Positions 11,048 through 30,223 of a DNA stretch of 64,000 nt are shown here, piece after piece (the stretch's first letter is position 1; each line of letters opens with the position of its first letter). Made by a program: the position numbers and the translations under genes. Below the pieces are notes generated by a model. The model worked only from the letters and a program-made list of their open reading frames with translations. It did not search any database and was not told the origin of the DNA. Source of the stretch: a candidate division TM6 bacterium GW2011_GWF2_28_16 (GTDB lineage: Bacteria > Babelota > Babeliae > Babelales > UASB340); assembly GCA_000989185.1 (NCBI GenBank), contig LBNX01000003.1, forward strand, positions 33,704 through 97,703, given 5' to 3'.

Positions 11048-11165
11048 TTTATAAAAACTAATGTTTTTTGTTAAATAATGCATTTGCAGTCTGTAATATA
11101 TTTATGTAATATATATTACATGTGTTACAAATAGAAATGTATTTTTGATAAAAATGGAGGTTTTT

Positions 11166-12839
11166 ATGAATTTTTTAATAAAAACAGTGCAAATATTCAC
11201 ATTTTTGGCATTTTTTGGCCAAACTTTTGCCATGAATCAATTTTTAACTCGATCTGAGACTGTTAAAAATATTTTAGAAAGAAATAACGTTAAACACGAA
11301 ATATTACAAGAAGAACCCAAAGGTTCACCTTTGGGAGAATATTTATTTCTTGGAGTTAAAGAAGTTAATAAATTTGGAAAATTTAATATTGAAGGTGAAG
11401 TAATAGAAATAGAACATGACGATGAAAATGTTTTATTAAATATTGAAAGTAATTTTTTTGTCAAAATATCATCTGATGATCTTGAATTTCTTATAATAAA
11501 TAAAATTTTAGATGTTGAATGGAATGATTTAAGTAATATCGATAAAAATGAAAATAAAAAGTTTAACGTAAGTAATATTTTGTCTAAAGTTGGTAAAGGA
11601 TTAATCTATTATTGTTTGGCTTATAGTATTATTACATCAATACATAGCAAAACAAATGATAAAGTAAAAATGAATGAACAATCTTTTTCTTTTAGACCGA
11701 TTGAAATTAAAGATGATGAAAGAAGATTGAATTATACAATATTTAATAATAAGCATATGAGAGTATGTCATCAAGATACAGGTGAATGTGTTAATGTATT
11801 AGTCGACCATATTTTTGGTCAAACTGATTATTTTCCACAAACTTGTTGTGAAGTTAATAATGTTACTACATCTGTAGAATGTTCTACTTGTGAAAAATCA
11901 AAATTAAATAATTTGGATTTCGATTGGAATCAACGTCTTGACCAAACAGAACGACAACCATTAATGGATACAATAAAAAGTTTTATAAATAAAAATGAAG
12001 GTGATGATAATAAAATAAATTGTATGATTGCATTTCCTGATGATAGTAGTGAATCTGCAATTGAGACTTATAGAAATTGTTATGAATATACAGAACCATT
12101 GTTTTATGGTGGCGCTGGGATAAAATGCGATTCAATAATACATTCTAAAGATTTAGAAAAAAATTTAACATCTTATTATAAAAAATTTAATTTTAATCGG
12201 CCTATAATGATTGTTATTGGTAATATTCGTATAAATAATTTATTTGTGTGGGCTCCGGATTCAGATGAAAGATATAGAAGAGAATATGAAGGTTGTTACA
12301 AAAATATACCGAATGGTAAGATGCCAGTAAAAATACATATATCAACGAAAAACGAGGACGTTTGTTCGATTCCGCTACCTTTTATGTTGCATGAATTAGG
12401 CCATAATAAAGAAGAGGACGATAAATTGATGGAATATCTAGAACAACTACAAGATATTTCTTATAAAGAAAAATTCGAATTATTTAATAGAGAGATAAGA
12501 TCAGACTATTTAGGATTGATTACATCTGAGCCAGAGTCAAGAGTTGCTGCGCTTAAATCTTTTTTTTCATACTTATTTAATGATTTTTGTTTACGGAAAA
12601 ATTTGTATGATTTTGATAATTTAAATGAGGCATTTAAGTCTATATTTGGATATAATCCAAATAAGGGTGATGTTGAGAAGCTTTTAAATTGTGATAGGAT
12701 TACTTACATAGATTCAAATGAAGATGCTCGGGATCCTCATCCAGATATTTTTGATAGAATACAACGGAATTTAGAATATATATACAAAATTGGTGCGGCT
12801 GAAAGATATTTGTTAAATAATGCAAAATCTGAAAATTAA
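11166..12839 (+). CDS. Orphan secreted protein with Cys-rich region and a lone HELGH motif
   Basis: The ATG at 11166 follows GGAGGTTTTT. It has the signal-like MNFLIKTVQIFTFLAFFGQTFA and an HEXXH motif (MLHELGHN). I recognise no wider family. Confidence 0.6.
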   Translation: MNFLIKTVQIFTFLAFFGQTFAMNQFLTRSETVKNILERNNVKHEILQEEPKGSPLGEYLFLGVKEVNKFGKFNIEGEVIEIEHDDENVLLNIESNFFVKISSDDLEFLIINKILDVEWNDLSNIDKNENKKFNVSNILSKVGKGLIYYCLAYSIITSIHSKTNDKVKMNEQSFSFRPIEIKDDERRLNYTIFNNKHMRVCHQDTGECVNVLVDHIFGQTDYFPQTCCEVNNVTTSVECSTCEKSKLNNLDFDWNQRLDQTERQPLMDTIKSFINKNEGDDNKINCMIAFPDDSSESAIETYRNCYEYTEPLFYGGAGIKCDSIIHSKDLEKNLTSYYKKFNFNRPIMIVIGNIRINNLFVWAPDSDERYRREYEGCYKNIPNGKMPVKIHISTKNEDVCSIPLPFMLHELGHNKEEDDKLMEYLEQLQDISYKEKFELFNREIRSDYLGLITSEPESRVAALKSFFSYLFNDFCLRKNLYDFDNLNEAFKSIFGYNPNKGDVEKLLNCDRITYIDSNEDARDPHPDIFDRIQRNLEYIYKIGAAERYLLNNAKSEN

Positions 12840-12960: not shown

Positions 12961-14280
12961 ATGGATGCACAACAATCTCTTTTTAAAAAAAATATAAAAC
13001 CTTTATCAGAAAATATGCGACCCAAAAATTTGGATGATATTTTTGGTCAAGAGCACTTGCTAGCGCAGGGCGCTATATTCAGAAAATTAGTCGAAAATGA
13101 TAGTTTGGGTAGCGTAATTTTTTGGGGGCCTCCTGGTACAGGCAAAACAACTATAGCAAATGTTATTGCTAATATCACAGAGCGCAAATTTATTACATTT
13201 CATGCAGCGTTTAATGGTGCAAAAGAAGTAAAAGATGTAATAGAATTAGCACAAAAAGAAATAAGTTTTGGTGCTAAAAGTTTAATATTGTTTGTAGATG
13301 AAATTCATAGATTTAATAAAGCACAGCAAGATTTATTTTTAAAACCTATAGAGCACGGTCAAATAATTTTAATAGGGGCTACAACAGAAAATCCTAGTTT
13401 TGCTGTAAATAATGCTTTATTAAGCAGATGCTCTGTTTATGCACTTAATCAATTAAAAGATATAGATCTAGAAAAAATAATTAATAAAATTCTTGAATAT
13501 TATAAAGCTTTAAATAAACAAGTCTTAATAGACGAACAAGCTAGAAAAATATTAATCGATTATTCTAATGGCGATGCTAGAAATATTATTAATATTATAG
13601 AATTAGCTGTTAGTGCATCTAAAGGATTAGTTAAAAATTGTGTAATTATAACTGTTGATATTATAAAAGAATTATTATCGACCAGAAAATTTGCTTATGA
13701 TAAAAATGGAGAACAGCATTATAATTTGCTATCAGCTTTGCATAAGTCTATTAGAGGCTCTGATGCTCAGGCTGGTATTTACTGGCTTGCAAGATTGCTT
13801 GAATCGGGTGCTGACCCATTAATTATTGTAAGAAGATTAATAGTAGCTGCAAGTGAAGATGTTGGTCTTGCAGATCCAGACGCACTACTTCAAGCTATTG
13901 CTGTAAAACATGCTATAGAACATTTGGGTTTGCCTGAGTGTAAAATAAATTTATCACAGTTAGTTATTTATTTGGCTACAGCACCAAAATCTAATAGTGC
14001 TTATATTGCTATAAATAATGCAATAAAAGATGTACATGAAAAAAATAATTTACCTGTGCCTTTAAATATTTGTAATGCAGAATCAAAGCTTATGACAAAT
14101 TTAGGATATGGTGCATATTATAAGTATGATCATGAATTTAAGTATCATTATGCAGGGCAAGAATTTTTGCCAGAAGATTTAAAAAATAGTATATATTATT
14201 CTCCAGGGGATTTGGGGTTTGAAAAAGAAATAAAAAGAAGAATAGAATTTTGGAAAAATTTAAAGGAATCTCATGGTTGA
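12961..14280 (+). CDS. rarA: Replication-associated recombination protein A (MgsA/RarA AAA+ ATPase)
   Basis: 439 aa. It has MRPKNLDDIFGQEHLL, Walker A GPPGTGKTT, Walker B LFVDEIHRFNK and the conserved C-terminal YW..R......DP block. Confidence 0.92.
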   Translation: MDAQQSLFKKNIKPLSENMRPKNLDDIFGQEHLLAQGAIFRKLVENDSLGSVIFWGPPGTGKTTIANVIANITERKFITFHAAFNGAKEVKDVIELAQKEISFGAKSLILFVDEIHRFNKAQQDLFLKPIEHGQIILIGATTENPSFAVNNALLSRCSVYALNQLKDIDLEKIINKILEYYKALNKQVLIDEQARKILIDYSNGDARNIINIIELAVSASKGLVKNCVIITVDIIKELLSTRKFAYDKNGEQHYNLLSALHKSIRGSDAQAGIYWLARLLESGADPLIIVRRLIVAASEDVGLADPDALLQAIAVKHAIEHLGLPECKINLSQLVIYLATAPKSNSAYIAINNAIKDVHEKNNLPVPLNICNAESKLMTNLGYGAYYKYDHEFKYHYAGQEFLPEDLKNSIYYSPGDLGFEKEIKRRIEFWKNLKESHG

Positions 14281-15190
14281 ACGTGTTGTTATAATTGGTT
14301 CTGGTCCAGCAGGACTTACTGCTGGTATTTATTTGGGTAGGGCAAAATTTGAGCCATTATTAATTGAGGGCATGCAACCTGGTGGTCAGCTTACTACAAC
14401 AACTAAAGTTGAAAATTGGCCAGGGATAAAAGAAGTTATGGGCTTTAAACTCATGATGGATATGAAAGATCATGCAAAGGCTTCTGGCTGTAAAATTATT
14501 TCTGATACAGTAGAAAGAGTAGATTTTTCTGGCATACCATATAAAATTTTTACAAAATTGGGAAAAGAATTTTTGGCTGAATCTGTAATAATTGCTACAG
14601 GAGCAAGTCACAAAAAATTAGGCATACAGGGAGAACAAGAATATTGGGCTAAAGGTGTTTCTGTTTGTGCAACATGTGATGCTCCATTTTTTCAGGATAA
14701 AAATGTGATTATAGTTGGCGGTGGTGATAGTGCTGTGACAGAAGCTGAGCATTTAACTCACTTTGCTAAAACAGTAACTATAGTTCATTTATTAGAAGAG
14801 CTAACTGCAAAAGATCCAATTAAATATAAAGTTCTTGAAAATAAAAAAGTAAATGTAATTTATAATTCAAGTGTTAAAAAAATAGATGGGGATGGTCTAC
14901 GTATGACCAAAGTTACTATAGAACATCAACAGACAGGTGATACTAAGGTTATCCCTGCAGAGGGTCTTTTTGTAGCCATTGGTATGAAGCCTAATACTGA
15001 TTTTTTAAAATCACAATTAGATTTAGATAATTATGGTTATGTTGTTCTTACTGGAAAAACTACAACTTCAAAAGAGGGCGTTTTTGCTGCAGGCGATGTT
15101 GCTGATTTTGTTTATAAACAAGCTATAACGGCTTCTGGTTTTGGGACTCAAGCTGCACTTGATTGTCAAAGATATTTATCAAAAAAATAA
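14273..15190 (+). CDS. trxB: Thioredoxin reductase (cytosolic type)
   Basis: 305 aa. It has the FAD motif IIGSGPAG, the redox CATCDAPFF and the NADPH motif IIVGGGDSA. There is an 8-nt overlap with rarA. Confidence 0.92.
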   Translation: MVERVVIIGSGPAGLTAGIYLGRAKFEPLLIEGMQPGGQLTTTTKVENWPGIKEVMGFKLMMDMKDHAKASGCKIISDTVERVDFSGIPYKIFTKLGKEFLAESVIIATGASHKKLGIQGEQEYWAKGVSVCATCDAPFFQDKNVIIVGGGDSAVTEAEHLTHFAKTVTIVHLLEELTAKDPIKYKVLENKKVNVIYNSSVKKIDGDGLRMTKVTIEHQQTGDTKVIPAEGLFVAIGMKPNTDFLKSQLDLDNYGYVVLTGKTTTSKEGVFAAGDVADFVYKQAITASGFGTQAALDCQRYLSKK

Positions 15191-15297: not shown

Positions 15298-16821
15298 TTA
15301 ATTAACAGCAATTAAAGTATTCTCTTTTATTTTTCTATCAATAGCAGTGTTAGCAAGTTCTTTTGTTAATATGCCATTTCCTCTGTTATATGCACTAATT
15401 TGCATTTCTAAAACAGCTTGAGATAAATCTCTACCCGAAAGACCAGCTGTTATTTGTGCTAAATTTTTTACAAAAGTTTGATCTATTTCTGGTGACATAT
15501 TTAACTTGCGTTCTACTTTTTGATTATTTATTTTTACGATTTTTGTATAGTCAGTAATATATTTTTTAAGATATAAATTTATTATTTGTTTACGTTCTTC
15601 TTGTCCAGGTAAATTAAAATTTATTTTGGTATCCATTCTGCTTAAAACTGCAGGATCTAATTGTGTTGCATGATTTGTAGCTAGTATTATCATTGTTTTA
15701 TTATTAACATCACCTGTGTTTGATAAAAATGCATTAACTAAATCTATTCTATTACTATCTAAGTCTTTTCTATTTCTTAAAAGTGCATCAGCTTCATCGA
15801 TAAAAATTATTAATCCCTTTGAGCTGCGTTTTGCCCAATCAAATAATTTGTGCATTTCTTGAATGGCTTTTTTGTGTTCAAATTGAGCAAAATCTGCTCC
15901 AGAAAGTATTGCATAATCCATGTTGCAGTATTTAGCTAATCGCTTTGCAAACATAGTTTTGCCTGTTCCTGGTACACCAAAGAATATAGTGTTTCTGTAA
16001 TTTAAGCCGTTAGCATGTGTTGCCTTTGTATCATATGCAAAATTACTTAAAGTTGTTTTTAACTCAGGGCTTAAAATTATTTCTTCTAGATTTTCTTCTT
16101 TTAATGGGTGTCCCATTATTTTATGTAACCAGAAATTTTTGAGTGTATTTTTAAAATTTATTTTATTAGATTCTCTTACTAAAACAGGTTGGCCCATTAA
16201 GCTTTCGATATAATTATAGCCTAATTTACTTGTGTAATAAGCAGCAGTTGAAAGACCTACGGCTAAACCTGTAGCAGCGCTTATATTTTTTAAATTTTCT
16301 ATTTTTAAAACTTCTTTTACAGAATCAACAGCTATTTTTATTTTATTTTGTCTTTCTTTGTCATTTTCTTCTGCCATTATTTTGTTTTTTTCGTCTAAAG
16401 CTTTTAAGTTTAAATTGTGATTTTCAGCTTCATGAAGCTTTTCTCTTTGATTTAATAATTCATTTTTGTAGCTGGTAACTTTTTCAATACAAAAATTAAG
16501 ACTTGCTTTTGCCATTACAAGATTATTGGTTTTAGTTTTTTCAAGATATTTAATTCTTTCTGTGGCCCAAGCAATATATTCAGTCCATATTTCTATTTTT
16601 TTTGTTAATTCAGATATATTTTTTTGAGCTTTTTGGCTTATAGTTTCAAATGTATTGTTAGCATAAAATAATTCTAGAATTGGTTCTTCTGGTGTTTTTC
16701 CTAAGCTATAAGGTTCATTATTGCCAAACATAGAATAATTGTTCTTTATAAAAAATACGTTTACAAATATAATTAAAATTATTGTTTTATTAATTTTTTT
16801 AAAATTTAAATTTATGAACAT
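15298..16821 (-). CDS. Membrane-anchored AAA ATPase resembling eukaryotic mitochondrial ATAD3
   Basis: 507 aa. The order is N-terminal TM, long coiled coil, a second hydrophobic segment, then the AAA module (GVPGTGKTMFAKRLA, IIFIDEAD). The blocks PVLVRES, YRNTIFFGVPGTGKT, MDYAILSGADFA, MHKLFDWA and LPGQEER match ATAD3 as I remember it. Confidence 0.7.
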   Translation of the reverse strand: MFINLNFKKINKTIILIIFVNVFFIKNNYSMFGNNEPYSLGKTPEEPILELFYANNTFETISQKAQKNISELTKKIEIWTEYIAWATERIKYLEKTKTNNLVMAKASLNFCIEKVTSYKNELLNQREKLHEAENHNLNLKALDEKNKIMAEENDKERQNKIKIAVDSVKEVLKIENLKNISAATGLAVGLSTAAYYTSKLGYNYIESLMGQPVLVRESNKINFKNTLKNFWLHKIMGHPLKEENLEEIILSPELKTTLSNFAYDTKATHANGLNYRNTIFFGVPGTGKTMFAKRLAKYCNMDYAILSGADFAQFEHKKAIQEMHKLFDWAKRSSKGLIIFIDEADALLRNRKDLDSNRIDLVNAFLSNTGDVNNKTMIILATNHATQLDPAVLSRMDTKINFNLPGQEERKQIINLYLKKYITDYTKIVKINNQKVERKLNMSPEIDQTFVKNLAQITAGLSGRDLSQAVLEMQISAYNRGNGILTKELANTAIDRKIKENTLIAVN

Positions 16822-16952
16822 AAAGTCCCCCTGTTAAATTCCCTAAAATGAGGCCTTAATATAGCATAAAATTTTTTAAAGAAAAAAGGCTTAAATTAAT
16901 TGCTGTTTGAATTTAATAACATTTATATTATGTGTATACAATATCTTTATAT

Positions 16953-17077
16953 CGCAGCAGGCGATAGCCTGCCGCTACCACAATATTGCCTACATAAACG
17001 TAGGCCTTTTGATTAATTCAATAAAGCCTGCCTTTAGGCATGGCGTAACTGAGGTAGAGGATGGCTATCGCCATCCG
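16953..17077. repeat. Cluster of GC-rich hairpins between two minus-strand genes
   Basis: The hairpins are GCAGGC-gata-GCCTGC, GCCTAC-ataaac-GTAGGC and GATGGC-tatc-GCCATC. The GAGGTAG motif is shared with class A repeats. Confidence 0.65.
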
Positions 17078-17081
17078 TTAT

Positions 17082-18599
17082 TTAATTATTTAATTTTTCG
17101 TTAATAATTTGTTTAAATGCAACTTCATCTCTGCCACCAGAGAATCTGGCAACCTCTTGGCCATTTTCGAATAATATAAATGTAGGTACTCCTCTAATGC
17201 CCCAAATTTGGGCTAGAATTTCTACATTAGCAACATCTGTTTTTATAAATTTTATAGTGTTTAATTCTTTTGCTAATTTTTCAACAATAGGATGCATCAT
17301 TTTACAAGGGAAGCACCAGTGGGCATAAAAATCTGCAACAACTTTGCCTTTGTAATTTAAAACTTCTTTTGCAAATTGTTGCTCATCTGTAACTTCTATT
17401 ACAGAGCCGAATGTTTGAGATTTTTGGGTTAGGTTCTTTGTAGGTACACTTTTTTTTGCTGGTGCTATTTCTTGAACGTCTTGTTTTTCAGGCGTTATTT
17501 TTTGTGCTTGATCTTGCACATTATTTTCTATATTTGTGTTTGGTGTGCTAAAACCAATTTTTGCTAAAAAACTTTGTGCATGCATTGCTGATCTTGCACC
17601 ATCACCTGCTGCTATAATTAATTGTTTATATTCAGGTTCACAGACATCTCCACAGGCAAAGATACCAGATTTAGAAGTTTTTTGGTTTTTATGGGTTAAG
17701 ATATAACCTTGTTCATCTAAATCTATTTTATTTTTAAATAATTCTGTATTTGGTTTAGCACCTATGGCCAAGAACATGCCATCAATATTAAGTTCACTTG
17801 TACTATTATTTTTATTATTAAATATTTCTAATTTTATAACTTTGTTATTATCGCCAATAACTTTTTTAATATTAGTATTATAAATTATCTCAATATTACT
17901 TTTGTTTTTTACAGTATCTGTTTGTTTGCCAGAAGCTCTTAATGTATCTCTTCTTACTATTAAATAAACTTTTTTCGCAATATTAGAAAGATATAAAGCA
18001 TCTGTAATTGCTGTATTACCACCACCAACTATAGCAACAGTTTTCTCTTTATAAAATGGGCCATCGCATGTTGCACATTTAGAAACGCCGTGCCCAAAAT
18101 ATTCTTTTTCGCCTGGTATATCCAAAAAGTTTGCTGTAGCACCAGTTGCTATAATACAAGATAATGCTTGTATTATTTTATCTTGGTTATTTTCTTTTAT
18201 ATTTATTAAATATGGCCAAACAGAAAAATCTACAGAATTAACTTGAGCGTTTATTATATTTGCACCAGAAGATATAGCATGCTCTTTTATTTTATTAGCC
18301 AAATCTATGCCAGAGATATTTTTTTCACCAGGCCAGTTACAGACAGAGTGTGATGCTGTTATAGCTCCACCAGGGATTGTGCCTTCTAATAAAACATGTT
18401 TTATGTTGCCTTGGCTTAAATAAATACTGGATGTTAACCCTGCAAACCCACCACCAATGATTACAACTGGGTAAGTGCTATCGTCTATTTTTACAACACT
18501 GGCGTCTAATTTTTTGAAATTTTTGGTAGAAGAATAGTTAAGACAACCTACTAAAAATACTAAACATAATATTAACGTTAAATTTTTTATGGCCTTCAT
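17082..18599 (-). CDS. Thioredoxin reductase-thioredoxin fusion with N-terminal lipoprotein signal peptide
   Basis: 505 aa. The signal is MKAIKNLTLILCLVFLVGC (lipobox LVGC). It has FAD (VIIGGGFAG), CATCDG and NADPH (IVGGGNTA) motifs, a low-complexity linker, then a thioredoxin fold with WCFPC. Confidence 0.8.
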   Translation of the reverse strand: MKAIKNLTLILCLVFLVGCLNYSSTKNFKKLDASVVKIDDSTYPVVIIGGGFAGLTSSIYLSQGNIKHVLLEGTIPGGAITASHSVCNWPGEKNISGIDLANKIKEHAISSGANIINAQVNSVDFSVWPYLINIKENNQDKIIQALSCIIATGATANFLDIPGEKEYFGHGVSKCATCDGPFYKEKTVAIVGGGNTAITDALYLSNIAKKVYLIVRRDTLRASGKQTDTVKNKSNIEIIYNTNIKKVIGDNNKVIKLEIFNNKNNSTSELNIDGMFLAIGAKPNTELFKNKIDLDEQGYILTHKNQKTSKSGIFACGDVCEPEYKQLIIAAGDGARSAMHAQSFLAKIGFSTPNTNIENNVQDQAQKITPEKQDVQEIAPAKKSVPTKNLTQKSQTFGSVIEVTDEQQFAKEVLNYKGKVVADFYAHWCFPCKMMHPIVEKLAKELNTIKFIKTDVANVEILAQIWGIRGVPTFILFENGQEVARFSGGRDEVAFKQIINEKLNN

Positions 18600-18782: not shown

Positions 18783-19916
18783 ATGTTTGCTGCTATCAAA
18801 AAAATGGGGTACAAAAAGATCGTTTTTATTTTATTTACGTTTATTTTGGCTATAAATTTTGCTTTTATTAGTAATAAAATTATGGCATTGCCAGATAGCT
18901 TAAATAGTCCAGAAAATATAAGTACTCAAGTAACAAATAAGAGTAATGTTGCTGAAAAAGCAAAAATAAGCTCTTTTTTTAATTTAGAAAATTTAAAACA
19001 AATATTTTCGCCCGAAAAATCTGTATTATATTTATTTATATTGGCATTTTTAATAGGTTTAATTACGAGTTTTACTCCATGTGTTTATCCTATGATTCCA
19101 ATAACTTTGGGAATATTACAAACCCAAGCTAGTGGGTCTGTATTAAGAAATTTTATGTTATCTGTAAGTTATGTTCTTGGTATTAGTACAATATATGCAT
19201 TTTTGGGTTATTTAGCTGCAACAACAGCTATTATGTTTGGTCAATGGTTAGCTAATCCATGGCTTATATTTTTTATAATATTATTTTTTATTTATTTAGC
19301 TTTTTCTATGTTTGGTTTTTACGAAATTAAAATGCCTCGTTTTTTAACTAAAAGAGAAAATGTAAGTGTTAAAGGTTCTTATTTTTATAGTTATTTATTT
19401 GGTTTAATTTCTGGCACAGTTGCATCTCCATGTTTAACACCATCGCTTGCTATAGTTTTGAGCTTTGTAGCAAAAGCTGGTAGCCCGGTAATAGGCTTTT
19501 TTGCCTTGTTTTTCTTTTCTTTAGGGATGGGGATTTTATTAATTTTAATTGGTACATTTTCAGCATCACTTTCTATTTTGCCAAGAGCTGGTATGTGGAT
19601 GATAGAGATTAAAAAGTTTTTTGGTTTTGTTTTGCTTTTTATGTCTATTTATTTTTTACAGCCATTATTGGGTGGATTTGCTGCATATAAATTATATGCG
19701 ATTTTAATTTTAATTTCTGGAGTTTATTATTTAGTAAAAGCTCAAAATAGTAAGATAAAAATTTATTTGGGTATTTTATTAATTATAAGTTCGTTAATAT
19801 TAACGGGATGGATTATAAGAGAAAAAAACACGAGAAGAACAAGGCTTTTGGCTACAAATTTAAAGCCTGACAGTATGCTTGTTTGTTTAAGTACCGCCAG
19901 GCACCAAAGATTATAA
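18783..19916 (+). CDS. CcdA/DsbD-family thiol:disulfide electron-transfer membrane protein
   Basis: 377 aa and polytopic. The conserved Cys motifs are FTPCVYPMIP and VASPCLTP. Confidence 0.8.
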   Translation: MFAAIKKMGYKKIVFILFTFILAINFAFISNKIMALPDSLNSPENISTQVTNKSNVAEKAKISSFFNLENLKQIFSPEKSVLYLFILAFLIGLITSFTPCVYPMIPITLGILQTQASGSVLRNFMLSVSYVLGISTIYAFLGYLAATTAIMFGQWLANPWLIFFIILFFIYLAFSMFGFYEIKMPRFLTKRENVSVKGSYFYSYLFGLISGTVASPCLTPSLAIVLSFVAKAGSPVIGFFALFFFSLGMGILLILIGTFSASLSILPRAGMWMIEIKKFFGFVLLFMSIYFLQPLLGGFAAYKLYAILILISGVYYLVKAQNSKIKIYLGILLIISSLILTGWIIREKNTRRTRLLATNLKPDSMLVCLSTARHQRL

Positions 19917-19920
19917 AAAA

Positions 19921-20355
19921 TTATAATAATTTATTAATAGCTTCTTCGAGTTCTTGTTCAGAAATTTCACCAGCAATTTGTGTTACAATATTATTATCTT
20001 TAAATAATACAAAAGTTGGTACACCTAGTATATTATATTTGTCTGTTATTTCGCCTAAATTGCTTGCATCAACTTTGAAAAAGTTTATTTTTGTAAAATA
20101 TTTATTTGCTAATTTTTCGTAAATAGGTTCCATAACTTTGCATGCGCTGCACCATTTAGTTTCGAACTTAACTACGCAAGGTTTTTGATTTGAAAAAACT
20201 TGGGAATCAAAGTCTTGAGAGCTTGTTATATTAATTATTTTTGAGTTTAAAGTTTCTTGAGAGATATTTATTTGATTGTCGTTGGTTTTTTTTTCTAAAG
20301 AATTACACCCAGAGAAAATAGTCAAAATTATTGTACCAATAAATATTTTTTTCAT
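19921..20355 (-). CDS. Periplasmic (lipoprotein) thioredoxin-like protein
   Basis: 144 aa. The signal MKKIFIGTIILTIFSGC is followed by a thioredoxin fold with WCSAC. Confidence 0.8.
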   Translation of the reverse strand: MKKIFIGTIILTIFSGCNSLEKKTNDNQINISQETLNSKIINITSSQDFDSQVFSNQKPCVVKFETKWCSACKVMEPIYEKLANKYFTKINFFKVDASNLGEITDKYNILGVPTFVLFKDNNIVTQIAGEISEQELEEAINKLL

Positions 20356-27221: not shown

Positions 27222-28574
27222 ATGTTTTTTCGTATTATCAAGTTTTTTTGGCCAGATTTATCTAATGAAGAGATAAAAAAATATGGAATGCTTTCCATGG
27301 CTTTCTTTTTCATTATTGGAGCATACTGGTTATTGCGCCCATTAAAAGATGGTTTCTTTTTTAGTGCAGTAGGTGGAAAATATCAACCAACAGCAAAAAT
27401 GCTTTCAGTTCTTATTGTTGGTATTTTGGTAATGGTTTATTCAAAGCTTGTAGATATAGTCGAGAAACATAAATTATTTTATATTTTGGGTTCTATATAT
27501 ACAGTTTTGTTTGCAATAGTTGCTTACGTAGTAAACTTCCCAGTTGAAGGACCGGGCGCTTTAAACCCATCAATCTTAAGATTTTTTGGTTGGGCTTCTT
27601 ACTTTATTATAGAAAGTTTTGGTTCTATAGTAGTTGCACTTTTTTGGTCTTTTACTGCTAGCGTTTCTGATGCTAAATCTGCAAAAAAAGGTTATTCATT
27701 AGTTATAGCCGGTGCTCAAATTGGCGCAATATTTGGACCCTTTATGGCAACATATGCAAAAAGCTGGGGTTTAATGCCGTTATTTTTAATTGGTACAGTT
27801 TCTATAATGCTTATGATGTTTATCATAAACCGTTTTATGGCTGTAACTCCAAAAGAACAATTAGAAATAAATAAACAAGAAGTTAAATCTGAATCTGCTC
27901 CAAAAACAGGCTTTTTAGAAGGTTTAAAACTTTTATTAACAAGACCATATTTATTAGGAATATTTGCAGTAGTTACAATTTATGAAGTTGTTGGAACTAT
28001 TGTTGACTATCAAATGAAGATGCAAGCACAAGCATTGCCTCAGTATGCATCAAGAGAATCTTTAACAGCATTCTTGGGTGTATTTGGTATGTCTGCAAAT
28101 GCATTAGCATTCTTTATGGCTCTTTTAGGTACAGGTTATATGATGAAAAAACTTGGCCTAAGATTTTGTTTATTAACATTCCCTATTGTTTTGGGTCTTG
28201 CTGTTGCTGGTTTATATGCTGCATATACTTGGGGTCATTTTAATCCAATGATGCTATTGTGGGCAACCTTTGGTGTTATGATGATTGCAAAAGGTTTAAG
28301 CTATGCATTAAATAATCCTGCAAAAGAAATGATGTATATTCCAACAAGTAAAGATGTAAAATTCAAATCTAAAGGTTGGATTGATATGTTTGGCTCAAGA
28401 AGCTCAAAAGCTGTTGGTGCAGCATTTACCGATTCATTAAAAGGTAATGCATATAATTTAATGGCTTATGGAACAATTTTATCTTTAGGCTTTATTGGTG
28501 TTTGGATTGTTGTTGCATTCTTTGTAAGCAATAAATTTGAACGTCTTACAGCAGAAGGCAAAATTGTTGAATAA
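27222..28574 (+). CDS. NTT/Tlc-family nucleotide (ATP/ADP) antiporter, paralog 1
   Basis: 450 aa and polytopic. The blocks LLRPLKDGFFF, ESFGSIVVALFWSF...SAKKGY and NNPAKEMMYIP...KFKSKGWIDMFG match Chlamydia/Rickettsia Npt/Tlc proteins as I remember them. Confidence 0.75.
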   Translation: MFFRIIKFFWPDLSNEEIKKYGMLSMAFFFIIGAYWLLRPLKDGFFFSAVGGKYQPTAKMLSVLIVGILVMVYSKLVDIVEKHKLFYILGSIYTVLFAIVAYVVNFPVEGPGALNPSILRFFGWASYFIIESFGSIVVALFWSFTASVSDAKSAKKGYSLVIAGAQIGAIFGPFMATYAKSWGLMPLFLIGTVSIMLMMFIINRFMAVTPKEQLEINKQEVKSESAPKTGFLEGLKLLLTRPYLLGIFAVVTIYEVVGTIVDYQMKMQAQALPQYASRESLTAFLGVFGMSANALAFFMALLGTGYMMKKLGLRFCLLTFPIVLGLAVAGLYAAYTWGHFNPMMLLWATFGVMMIAKGLSYALNNPAKEMMYIPTSKDVKFKSKGWIDMFGSRSSKAVGAAFTDSLKGNAYNLMAYGTILSLGFIGVWIVVAFFVSNKFERLTAEGKIVE

Positions 28575-28728: not shown

Positions 28729-30075
28729 ATGTTTACACGATTTTTTAAATTTTTCGGTAAAGATTTAAGTAGTAAAGAAGTTGAAAAATTTAGTCTTCTT
28801 GCTTTAGCATTTTTTTTTACAGTTGGTGGCTACTGGCTTTTAAAAACATTAAAAGACGGTTTCTTTTTTAATGTCGTTGGTGGTCAATTTCAGCCTAGAG
28901 CAAAAATGCTCTCACTTGTTGTTATTTCTATATTAGTACTTGTTTATAGTAAACTTGTAGATATATTTCATAGACATCAATTATTTTATATTTTTGGAAC
29001 TTTTTTTGCAGTTTTTTTTGCACTTGTATCAATATCTTTGGCTTTACCTGTGCATAGTTTTGGCCCGGCTTATTTGCAATATATAAAAATTTTAGGATGG
29101 GCTTCGTACGTTATGGTCGAAAGCTTTGGATCTATTATGATTGCATTATTCTGGTCTTTTGTAACAAGTATTACAGATACAGAATCTGCAAAGCGTGGTT
29201 ATTTTTTAATTGTTGCAGGCGCTCAACTTGGTGCAATATTTGGTCCCTTTTTATCTTGGAATGCTAAATTTTTTGGATTACCAATATTGTTCGCTATGGC
29301 AACAGCATGCATATTAGCTTTAATTTTAGTCATAAAAAAATTTATTTCAGTTACTCCACAAGAAGAACTTATTGGAGGTAAACAAGATATAAGACCTCAG
29401 GAAAAGACAGGCTTTTGGCAAGGTTTAAAACTTATTACAACCAAACCATATTTATTTGGGATTTTATTATTAGTTATTTTTTATGAAACAGTTACAACTA
29501 TAGTTGATTATCAAATGAAAATTCTAGCACAAGCATTACCTGAGTATGCAACTAAAGAAGCTTTGACATCTTTTATGGGTATATTTGGTATGGCGACCAA
29601 TGGTTTATCTTTATTAATGGCTCTTTTTGGTACAGGTTATTTAATTAAAAAATTTGGGTTACGTTTTTGTTTGTTGGCATTTCCGGTTGCTGTAGGGTTT
29701 GCTATAGCTGCATTATATGGAGTTATTAAATTAGATTTTTTAACTACTCAAAGTATGTTATGGGCAACTTTTACAGTTGTAATTATAGCCAAAGGCTTAA
29801 GTTATGCTCTTAATAATCCTGCAAAAGAGGTTATGTATATTCCAACAAGTAGAGACGCTAAATTTAAAGCTAAAGGTTGGATAGATATGTTTGGTGCCAG
29901 AGGTGCTAAAGCAATAGGTTCTGGGTTTAATGAATATTTAATTAGAACTCCAGATGTTTTATTATATCTTGGTTCTATTTTGTCTTTGGGTTTAATAGGT
30001 ATATGGATTATAGTGGCTCTTCTTGTGGGTAATAAATTTAATAGATTAATAAAAAACAATCAGATAGTCGGATAA
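28729..30075 (+). CDS. NTT/Tlc-family nucleotide antiporter, paralog 2
   Basis: 448 aa, colinear with paralog 1 (LLKTLKDGFFF, ESFGSIMIALFWSF...SAKRGY, NNPAKEVMYIP...KFKAKGWIDMFG). Confidence 0.75.
   Translation: MFTRFFKFFGKDLSSKEVEKFSLLALAFFFTVGGYWLLKTLKDGFFFNVVGGQFQPRAKMLSLVVISILVLVYSKLVDIFHRHQLFYIFGTFFAVFFALVSISLALPVHSFGPAYLQYIKILGWASYVMVESFGSIMIALFWSFVTSITDTESAKRGYFLIVAGAQLGAIFGPFLSWNAKFFGLPILFAMATACILALILVIKKFISVTPQEELIGGKQDIRPQEKTGFWQGLKLITTKPYLFGILLLVIFYETVTTIVDYQMKILAQALPEYATKEALTSFMGIFGMATNGLSLLMALFGTGYLIKKFGLRFCLLAFPVAVGFAIAALYGVIKLDFLTTQSMLWATFTVVIIAKGLSYALNNPAKEVMYIPTSRDAKFKAKGWIDMFGARGAKAIGSGFNEYLIRTPDVLLYLGSILSLGLIGIWIIVALLVGNKFNRLIKNNQIVG

Positions 30076-30146: not shown

Positions 30147-30223
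<77 letters not shown>

Follow-up and report, generated by a model that had tools for sequence, protein, structure and literature searches.

The 64,000-nucleotide stretch analysed here, called the window below, comes from the candidate division TM6 bacterium GW2011_GWF2_28_16 and carries, on its minus strand at 15298..16821, a complete open reading frame (ORF) of 507 codons and a stop codon, whose product is related to ATAD3, an AAA ATPase of eukaryotic mitochondria. The explanation that best accounts for the data, to which we give a probability of about 0.6, is that this protein is an ATAD3-like AAA+ ATPase of a type found in Dependentiae, anchored in the inner membrane with a coiled-coil stalk in the periplasm, and that one ancient transfer connects its family with ATAD3. 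All ATAD3-like positions and strands are given in window coordinates. The protein is 100% identical to the hypothetical protein SZ59_C0003G0048 of the same bacterium.

Affinity to eukaryotic ATAD3

The original prediction, made from the letters alone, saw in this gene a specific relative of ATAD3 rather than a member of ordinary bacterial AAA families, and three kinds of comparison bear this out at the level of the family. In a search of 5.8 billion proteins, the top matches were a large set of Dependentiae/Babeliales proteins and the next were eukaryotic ATAD3 sequences, with phmmer scores of 207-213 bits and 34-40% identity over 60-80% of the query. The AAA module alone (residues 272-507) gave median blastp values of 169 bits and 39% identity against 38 eukaryotic ATAD3 representatives, versus 72 bits and 29% identity against 13 other AAA proteins used as outgroup. 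The affinity also extends outside the AAA module: when the transmembrane (TM) helix and linker (residues ~176-272) of 86 bacterial and 24 eukaryotic sequences were compared, hhalign gave 99.8% with an E-value of 2e-27, versus 0.07 for the reversed control.

Scores to other AAA proteins are much lower. Cdc48/p97, the best AAA match in the PDB, reached a total of 96 bits with its two domains, the better of which gave about 53 bits, and FtsH reached 59 bits, so that Cdc48, FtsH and Rpt stand at about 53-59 bits per domain. The NCBIfam models IteA, FtsH and PAN matched with at most 78 bits, far under their own cutoffs (78 bits against 510 for IteA; 72 bits against 600 for TIGR01241 FtsH), and PADLOC returned only generic IetA/TRIP13 AAA matches, that to IetA having 85 bits over the AAA core only. 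No ATAD3 chain was found among the PDB sequence and Foldseek matches, the latter being generic classical AAA modules only.

The N-terminal half behaves differently. No homology between the bacterial coiled coil and that of eukaryotic ATAD3 was detected (hhalign 0.6%, E 0.1, equal to reversed controls). In blastp, this region finds just 8 of the 116 bacterial family members, which points to fast evolution even within the family. The Pfam profile ATAD3_N (PF12037) is matched with 14.8 bits, below its cutoff of 25, and only over profile positions 229-265, i.e., the last 37, which cover the TM helix and the linker. Since six bacterial relatives pass this cutoff with 25.8-45.7 bits (P0033, P0043, P0048, P0050, P0052 and P0076), the failure of the query can be attributed to divergence of the N-terminus of its own copy. 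The relative with 45.7 bits, P0033, is clearly bacterial because it is encoded on a 1.35-Mb contig among genes for RF-1 and TilS. On sequence grounds, homology to ATAD3 is thus demonstrable only from the TM helix onward, i.e., in the TM helix, the GxPxLVRE linker and the whole AAA module. It had been proposed that the protein has the full ATAD3 architecture and is a close copy of it. The order of the elements is indeed the same, but the coiled coil is without detectable homology, a signal peptide is added and the ATAD3_N cutoff is missed; together with an identity of 34-40%, this does not amount to a close copy.

The signature blocks listed in the same prediction were checked against actual eukaryotic ATAD3 sequences from insects, Linum (flax), Symbiodinium and MMETSP protists, and every one of them is present and aligned. 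In G210-QPVLVRES, P212 and L214 are invariant in 110 sequences, and R216 and E217 in an alignment of 11 sequences. In L250-SPEL, L250 is at least 90% conserved while the serine is variable. The blocks Y275-RNTIFFGVPGTGKTMFAKRLAKYCNMDYAILSGAD and IIFIDEADALLRNR are both recovered in the eukaryotic sequences. The string M323-HKLFDWA, said to be identical, is found exactly in the protist ATAD3 sequences P0104 and P0114, whereas most others have [IM]HK[VL]FDWA. In LPGQEER, P405 and R410 are invariant and the glutamine is variable.

Anatomy and expression of the protein

An AlphaFold2 model built on the 110-sequence alignment (mean predicted local distance difference test, pLDDT, 86.4) shows in order a hydrophobic helix (residues 13-25), a disordered stretch (28-54), a helical hairpin (57-96/101-171), a membrane helix (182-209) and the AAA module (272-507). 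The gene and its parts are as follows:

15298..16821, minus strand: ATAD3-like gene (ORF listing; identity to SZ59_C0003G0048)
16732..16821, minus strand: residues 1-30, putative Sec-type signal peptide or signal anchor (hydropathy; model helix 13-25)
16309..16653, minus strand: residues 57-171, long helical hairpin (coiled-coil stalk), predicted to be periplasmic (AlphaFold2 helices 57-96 and 101-171, pLDDT 80-96)
16195..16287, minus strand: residues 179-209, Gly/Ala/Ser-rich transmembrane helix (model helix 182-209)
16009..16194, minus strand: residues 210-271, juxtamembrane linker with G210-QPVLVRES and L250-SPEL (invariant P212/L214; hhalign)
15553..16008, minus strand: residues 272-423, AAA alpha/beta subdomain (Pfam AAA, E 2e-26; invariant columns; Foldseek)
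15838..15900, minus strand: residues 308-328, pore-loop-1 region GADFAQFEHKKAIQEMHKLFD, 21 residues with the aromatic F (length survey)
15301..15552, minus strand: residues 424-507, AAA lid / C-terminal helical subdomain with G460-LSGRD (model; invariant R464)
16826..16866, minus strand: expression signals, extended -10-like element TGCTATATT (16858-16866) and Shine-Dalgarno sequence GGGGGA (16826-16831) (conservation)

The signal segment has an n-region with K8/K9/K12, the h-region TIILIIFVNVFFI and a putative cleavage site YS|M. Residues 179-209 align with the TM segment of ATAD3 and with the final stretch of the Pfam ATAD3_N profile, and the linker that follows is an ATAD3-specific region outside the AAA core. 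The catalytic motifs are intact in the alignment columns (Walker A G282-VPGTGKT, Walker B I338-IFIDE, sensor-1 N383 and Arg finger R395). Foldseek matches of the AAA module to those of FtsH, p97 and Rpt indicate a classical AAA fold. In the lid, the Pfam AAA_lid_3 match to residues 424-507 is weak, the model has a beta-hairpin insert at residues 426-439, and R464 is invariant in 110 sequences.

A Met preceded by a small residue (FAM, SAM, NAM or YSM) stands just after the h-region of the signal peptide in 34 of 109 ATAD3-like family members and in 3 of the 30 other signal-bearing ORFs of the window; in the query it is S30-M31 (window 16729-16734). Such a motif could mark a favoured context for cleavage or else an alternative start within the gene.

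The start codon is ATG, with GGGGGA located 5' of it, and the upstream region, including both the extended -10-like element and the Shine-Dalgarno sequence, is kept at two syntenic loci (L001 and L025). From this cross-locus conservation only, the gene appears to have its own promoter. A generic promoter and terminator scan gave counts at chance level in this AT-rich DNA. No second ATAD3-like copy was found in the window by tblastn, the sole other match being the AAA domain of the neighbouring RarA.

Predicted location and mode of action

A signal-like N-terminal segment is found in 98 of 116 bacterial relatives versus 3 of 35 eukaryotic ATAD3 sequences, and Dependentiae have a Sec system (PMC6561590). 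The window encodes BamA and a penicillin-binding protein (PBP) transpeptidase. These two genes, two ATP/ADP translocases and a signal-peptide ankyrin protein, all in the window, indicate a host-dependent diderm. The host-dependent genome assumed in the original prediction is thereby corroborated, in particular by the two translocases and the ankyrin protein.

Judging from its sequence features, the protein would be inserted as follows. The Sec signal peptide would take the N-terminus across the inner membrane and, because the N-terminus is thereby exported, the helical-hairpin stalk would lie in the periplasm, where the helix 101-171 alone would span about 10 nm. The single TM helix would serve as anchor and place the ATPase ring on the cytoplasmic side. 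By analogy, the protein may assemble into a hexamer and use cytoplasmic ATP hydrolysis to organise or remodel components of the envelope. Possible actions include tethering of the inner membrane to the outer one or work on a membrane or periplasmic partner. ATAD3A has its coiled coils in the intermembrane space, its TM segment in the inner membrane and its ATPase in the matrix (PMC10419812). The predicted topology of the bacterial protein would be equivalent, the periplasm corresponding to the intermembrane space and the cytoplasm to the matrix.

In many relatives, the partner could be a signal-peptide protein encoded immediately upstream. At many more distant loci, an ORF of 400-600 residues with a signal peptide and a hydrophobic C-terminus precedes the ATAD3-like gene on the same strand, often overlapping its start codon. 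Examples, given as locus and position within it, are:

L003:4121-5431, upstream partner ORF
L005:1058-2560, upstream partner ORF
L006:3880-5526, upstream partner ORF
L008:4228-5562, upstream partner ORF
L013:4179-5399, upstream partner ORF
L020:3957-5366, upstream partner ORF
L021:1660-3048, upstream partner ORF
L022:3806-5347, upstream partner ORF
L079:6110-7933, upstream partner ORF

These ORFs are weakly related to one another and none of the three that were scanned (L003, L008 and L079) has a Pfam match. They are likely operon partners of the ATAD3-like genes.

Comparison with known systems

The eukaryotic system taken for comparison includes human ATAD3A/B, Drosophila bor, C. elegans ATAD-3, Arabidopsis ATAD3 and Plasmodium PfATAD3 (Pfam PF12037 and PF00004; KEGG ATAD3A_B). 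These proteins and the bacterial one share the succession of coiled coil, TM helix, GxPxLVRE(S/T) linker and classical AAA module, as well as HK[LV]FDWA, a short S/D-R-x-D Arg-finger region and SGR(D/E). They differ in several respects. Bacterial members have a Sec-type signal segment that ATAD3 mostly lacks, and the bacterial protein is without a proline-rich N-terminus. Pore loop 1 reads SGADFxQFxxG in bacteria and TGGDVAPLG, one residue shorter, in eukaryotic ATAD3, and the Arg finger is followed by SRIHKK (SRMDTK in the query) instead of DRxDE. The bacterial protein has 507 residues, ATAD3 about 590-650. Its host is a bacterium, devoid of mitochondria, and at many bacterial loci there is a co-encoded upstream partner, unlike for ATAD3. 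The bacterial protein is therefore not an ATAD3 ortholog, since it falls outside the eukaryotic clade (see below), fails the ATAD3_N threshold and differs in its N-terminus and pore loop.

FtsH and the mitochondrial m-/i-AAA proteases also combine an inner-membrane anchor, an N-terminal domain outside the cytoplasm and a classical AAA ring inside it, as predicted for the bacterial protein, and they are among its best structural matches (Foldseek E of about 1e-15 to 1e-14, 23-26% identity). Unlike FtsH, the bacterial protein has no M41 protease domain in Pfam, one TM helix after the signal peptide instead of two TM helices, and a sequence score to FtsH of only about 59-72 bits. Its Arg-finger region is also two residues shorter than the classical R-P-G-R-F-D.

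In an alternative, family and topology are as described above, but the protein is a substrate-threading extractase or unfoldase and not a scaffold. Like a protease-less FtsH or like Msp1/Bcs1, it would act on membrane proteins, and it would process envelope proteins or the partner encoded next to it. In the bacterial proteins, the pore loop has retained its ancestral length, an aromatic residue (QF) and its glycine, whereas eukaryotic ATAD3 has lost one residue and the aromatic (APLG). Furthermore, the closest solved folds are those of the threading machines FtsH, p97 and Rpt, and at many loci the ORF for a partner with signal peptide and TM segment overlaps the start codon. Against threading, the aromatic is shifted by one position from the canonical aromatic-hydrophobic-Gly motif, protease and adaptor domains are lacking, and the partner gene is absent from the window. 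A threading activity is on balance unlikely, although it is not a negligible option.

A role as IetA/IteA (TRIP13) in a defence system was also considered and set aside, as the generic AAA matches are far below cutoff and the neighbours are housekeeping redox genes. In the Iet system, we take the IetS protease to be the partner of IetA.

A native family of Dependentiae

An exhaustive search of 1.84 billion representatives returned 600 proteins at E <=1e-30, and about 90 of the best 120 clusters (90% identity) in the protein search are of Dependentiae type. Among GTDB species genomes, ATAD3-like loci are present in more than 25, and the complete signature is found at loci L001-L025, whose metagenome-assembled genomes (MAGs) are labelled TM6, Dependentiae, Babeliales or only generically. 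Single genomes can carry paralogs: UASB340 has two, and a contig labelled Epsilonproteobacteria (L081, GCA_020633995.1) has three in a row within 6 kb, together with a gene for a 3302-residue ankyrin protein. Several loci labelled "uncultured Pseudomonadota" have the same neighbouring genes as the TM6 loci.

The loci with this Pseudomonadota label and Dependentiae-type ATAD3-like genes are L004, L007, L008, L016-L019, L021 and L024. Some of these MAGs or that of L081 have the same neighbours, encoding thioredoxin reductase (TrxB) or a fusion of TrxB with thioredoxin (TrxB-Trx). The taxonomic labels of L081 and of the MAGs listed are probably wrong or generic.

The query shows all the features of the bacterial family (signal-peptide-like N-terminus, variable coiled coil, TM helix, GxPxLVRE linker and the 21-residue loop with SGADFxQFxxG) and clusters with 116 other bacterial representatives. 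The gene order of the window (RarA, TrxB, ATAD3-like protein, lipoprotein-type TrxB-Trx fusion, CcdA/DsbD, lipo-thioredoxin) recurs at L001 and L025 and partly at other loci. The G+C content at third codon positions (GC3) of the gene is 0.156, versus 0.14-0.19 for its neighbours. Because the family is large, divergent and rich in paralogs, synteny and promoter are conserved and GC3 is like that of the neighbours, the gene is native and old, neither a contaminant nor a recent import. The ATAD3-like family of Dependentiae is an old, diversified and vertically inherited family that extends over the phylum.

Direction of the proposed transfer

Neighbour-joining (NJ) trees were built from 194 sequences sharing less than 80% identity and 325 columns, with two distance corrections and 100-200 bootstrap replicates. 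Eukaryotic ATAD3 is monophyletic, with all bacterial sequences outside, in 72-96% of the replicates, and the eukaryotes and all bacterial N-anchored groups are together separated from other AAA proteins in 84-98%. Bacterial monophyly is recovered in 0-3%, or in 20% once the most divergent groups are removed. In 86-88% of replicates (65% after pruning), the eukaryotes form a group, apart from the outgroup, with no more than half of the bacterial sequences. The NJ trees thus tend to put eukaryotes inside the bacterial diversity, and bacteria nested within eukaryotic ATAD3 were never seen in them.

The length of the G308-D328 segment, which includes pore loop 1, provides a character that does not depend on the alignment, and it agrees with the trees. 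It has 21 residues in the query, in 108 of 117 core bacterial members, in the 4 members labelled "sis" and in 10 of 13 outgroup AAA proteins (presumably also in FtsH and p97), versus 20 in all 38 eukaryotic ATAD3 representatives. The named members of this eukaryote-type set are insects, flax, Symbiodinium, Marteilia and one MMETSP protist. Comparison of these sequences identifies the eukaryotic one-residue deletion as the derived state and the bacterial 21 residues as the ancestral length, so a crown eukaryote already bearing the deletion cannot be the ancestor of the bacterial family.

We read these data as reflecting a single ancient inter-domain transfer that would link the Dependentiae family and ATAD3. 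Its direction leans mildly toward bacterium to eukaryote, and the data argue against a recent acquisition by the bacterium from a host. It is possible, though rather doubtful, that ATAD3 descends from a Dependentiae-type bacterial envelope ATPase. An early eukaryote would have received the gene from an intracellular bacterial parasite, the Sec signal would have been lost and the product retargeted to the topologically equivalent mitochondrial envelope.

The host-to-bacterium transfer put forward in the original prediction is at odds with a phylum-wide, paralog-rich family with conserved synteny, with GC3 like that of the neighbours, with eukaryote monophyly and with a derived deletion that bacteria lack. 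In its full form, this scenario would have the gene captured from a eukaryotic host such as an amoeba and its product secreted as an effector that remodels host mitochondria by mimicking ATAD3. In its favour, Dependentiae live as obligate intracellular parasites, ATAD3 is otherwise known from eukaryotes only, and the window holds other host-interaction genes (the signal-peptide ankyrin protein and the ATP/ADP translocases). Furthermore, Chromulinavorax makes the host mitochondrion wrap around it and has many proteins with signal peptides (PMC6561590). However, bacteria are never nested in eukaryotic ATAD3, all 38 eukaryotic representatives carry the deletion that bacteria lack, the family is highly divergent across the phylum and the composition of the gene is fully native. 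A secreted effector is also unlikely because, with a TM helix after its Sec signal peptide, the protein is predicted to stay in the inner membrane of the bacterium, its ATPase facing the cytoplasm. Viral intermediates were not found in a scan of viral contigs, which argues in the same direction. Taken together, capture from a host is quite improbable. The effector or membrane-remodelling role that had been suggested is retained only in its second part: a membrane-organising function is plausible, in the bacterial envelope rather than in a host. A giant virus or phage as vector was likewise rejected, since the viral contig scan gave only generic AAA proteins with 24-35% identity, mostly over the AAA core.

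It is very improbable that the protein is an ordinary bacterial AAA ATPase whose likeness to ATAD3 combines generic AAA conservation with a convergent coiled-coil/TM architecture. The subthreshold ATAD3_N match (14.8 versus 25 bits), the absence of homology in the coiled coil and the generic NCBIfam and PADLOC matches to IteA/IetA, FtsH and PAN could suggest it. Yet these generic matches (45-85 bits) are far below their own cutoffs and compare with 207-213 bits for ATAD3. The AAA-only comparison (169 versus 72 bits), the homologous TM-linker region outside the AAA module (E 2e-27), the relatives that pass the ATAD3_N cutoff and the separation of the ingroup from other AAA proteins in 84-98% of bootstrap replicates effectively refute it. 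Eukaryotic contamination or a mis-binned contig, which the MAG origin and the doubtful taxonomic labels of several related MAGs might evoke, is refuted by the setting of the gene among bacterial genes (RarA, TrxB, CcdA, PBP, tmRNA and BamA) on one contig, by the same synteny across independent assemblies, by native GC3 and by a bacterial Shine-Dalgarno sequence, promoter and signal peptide.

Several points weigh against the explanation that we prefer, an inner-membrane ATPase of Dependentiae linked to ATAD3 by one ancient transfer. Signal-peptide cleavage and topology were called solely from hydropathy and charge. What eukaryotic ATAD3 does is likewise a matter of debate, so that the analogy yields a location and no precise activity. 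The upstream partner gene is missing from the copy in the window. Branch order among the bacterial groups is poorly supported (4-51% bootstrap), and long-branch attraction could mimic a nesting of eukaryotes among bacteria in distance-corrected NJ trees.

A set of more distant N-anchored bacterial AAA proteins (loci L029 and L031-L048) comes from MAGs that bear the labels Oligoflexales, Cellvibrionales, Gammaproteobacteria and Dependentiae. Among its members are L029 (Oligoflexales), L033/L044 (Cellvibrionales CLI1_bin_2), L035 (Gammaproteobacteria LS06H_Bin2), L031/L034/L048 and others. Like the query, they have an N-terminal hydrophobic anchor, P-x-L-hydrophobic-x-E-[ST]-S after the TM helix, F-x-W-A and often SGR, and 91-93% of NJ bootstrap replicates unite them with ATAD3 and the core family to the exclusion of other AAA proteins. 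They differ in reaching just 103-166 bits against the AAA module of the query, and their MAG labels are unverified. If these labels are right, ATAD3-like proteins are not confined to Dependentiae. The L033 protein scores 95-109 bits to ATAD3, hardly more than the 84-100 bits that it reaches with generic AAA proteins, and its family was set aside as an argument for a deep bacterial origin owing to this marginal affinity.

Surroundings of the gene

The ATAD3-like gene is surrounded by a thiol-redox cluster, at 17082-18599 (minus strand), 14273-15190 (plus), 18783-19916 (plus) and 19921-20355 (minus), that encodes a TrxB-thioredoxin fusion, a cytoplasmic TrxB, a CcdA/DsbD-type membrane protein and a lipoprotein thioredoxin. 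The fusion starts with a lipoprotein-type signal (…LVFLVGC). Such an apparently exported reductase of the FAD/NAD(P)H type is odd because the periplasm normally has no NADPH. TrxB-Trx fusions are also encoded near ATAD3-like genes at the distant loci L001, L003, L019, L025 and L081, and this recurring proximity of thioredoxin genes may be plain synteny.

Between the TrxB-Trx fusion and the ATAD3-like gene, at 16930-17081, lies a G+C-rich block of about 150 nucleotides in a genome of 28% G+C. Its fold consists of three or four stable hairpins (-62.5 kcal/mol, z = -6.3 against shuffles). The block has no match in Rfam, occurs nowhere else in the window and is missing from the corresponding intergenic region at L001 and L025. 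It resembles an insertion or a small RNA that lacks annotation.

Signal-like hydrophobic N-terminal segments are found in 30 of the 46 non-overlapping ORFs of at least 100 residues in the whole window. This share is in line with, and somewhat higher than, the signal-peptide fraction of 44% reported for Chromulinavorax. One of the ORFs of the window, at 11145-12839 (plus strand), encodes 564 residues with a signal peptide (…TFA|MNQ) and has neither a Pfam match nor a homolog at related loci. The two ATP/ADP translocase genes, of the TLC family, are in tandem at 27222-28574 and 28729-30075 (both plus strand), a sign of energy parasitism, and are followed by a tRNA gene at 30147-30220. The window also encodes a tmRNA.

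Significance

The mechanism of ATAD3, an essential protein that is found mutated in neurological disease of humans, is unsettled. ATAD3 has been described from animals, plants and protists, while fungi lack it (PMC13249166, PMC3790746, PMC10419812), and these three papers do not mention a bacterial relative. No paper linking ATAD3 with Dependentiae or TM6 turned up in full-text searches, and the TM6 and Babela genome papers do not mention ATAD3. The automatic annotation of JGI labels several of these bacterial proteins "ATAD3A/B". The similarity thus appears to be visible to pipelines, yet undiscussed in the literature.

A large bacterial sister family, which would surprise mitochondrial biologists, reopens the origin of ATAD3, including a possible source in a lineage of intracellular parasites, and makes this origin a testable question. 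If ATAD3 did come from a Dependentiae-type gene, it would be a bacterial but non-alphaproteobacterial contribution to mitochondrial architecture, and Dependentiae-like parasites would be older than the last eukaryotic common ancestor. Hundreds of divergent sequences make it possible to tell core features (the TM helix, the GxPxLVRE linker, HKLFDWA and SGR) from lineage-specific ones (the coiled coil and the pore loop), and the shorter bacterial proteins are candidates for structural and biochemical work on the ATAD3-type machine. For the biology of Dependentiae, the family represents a conserved ATPase that probably spans the envelope, in organisms whose lipids and ATP have to come from their hosts.

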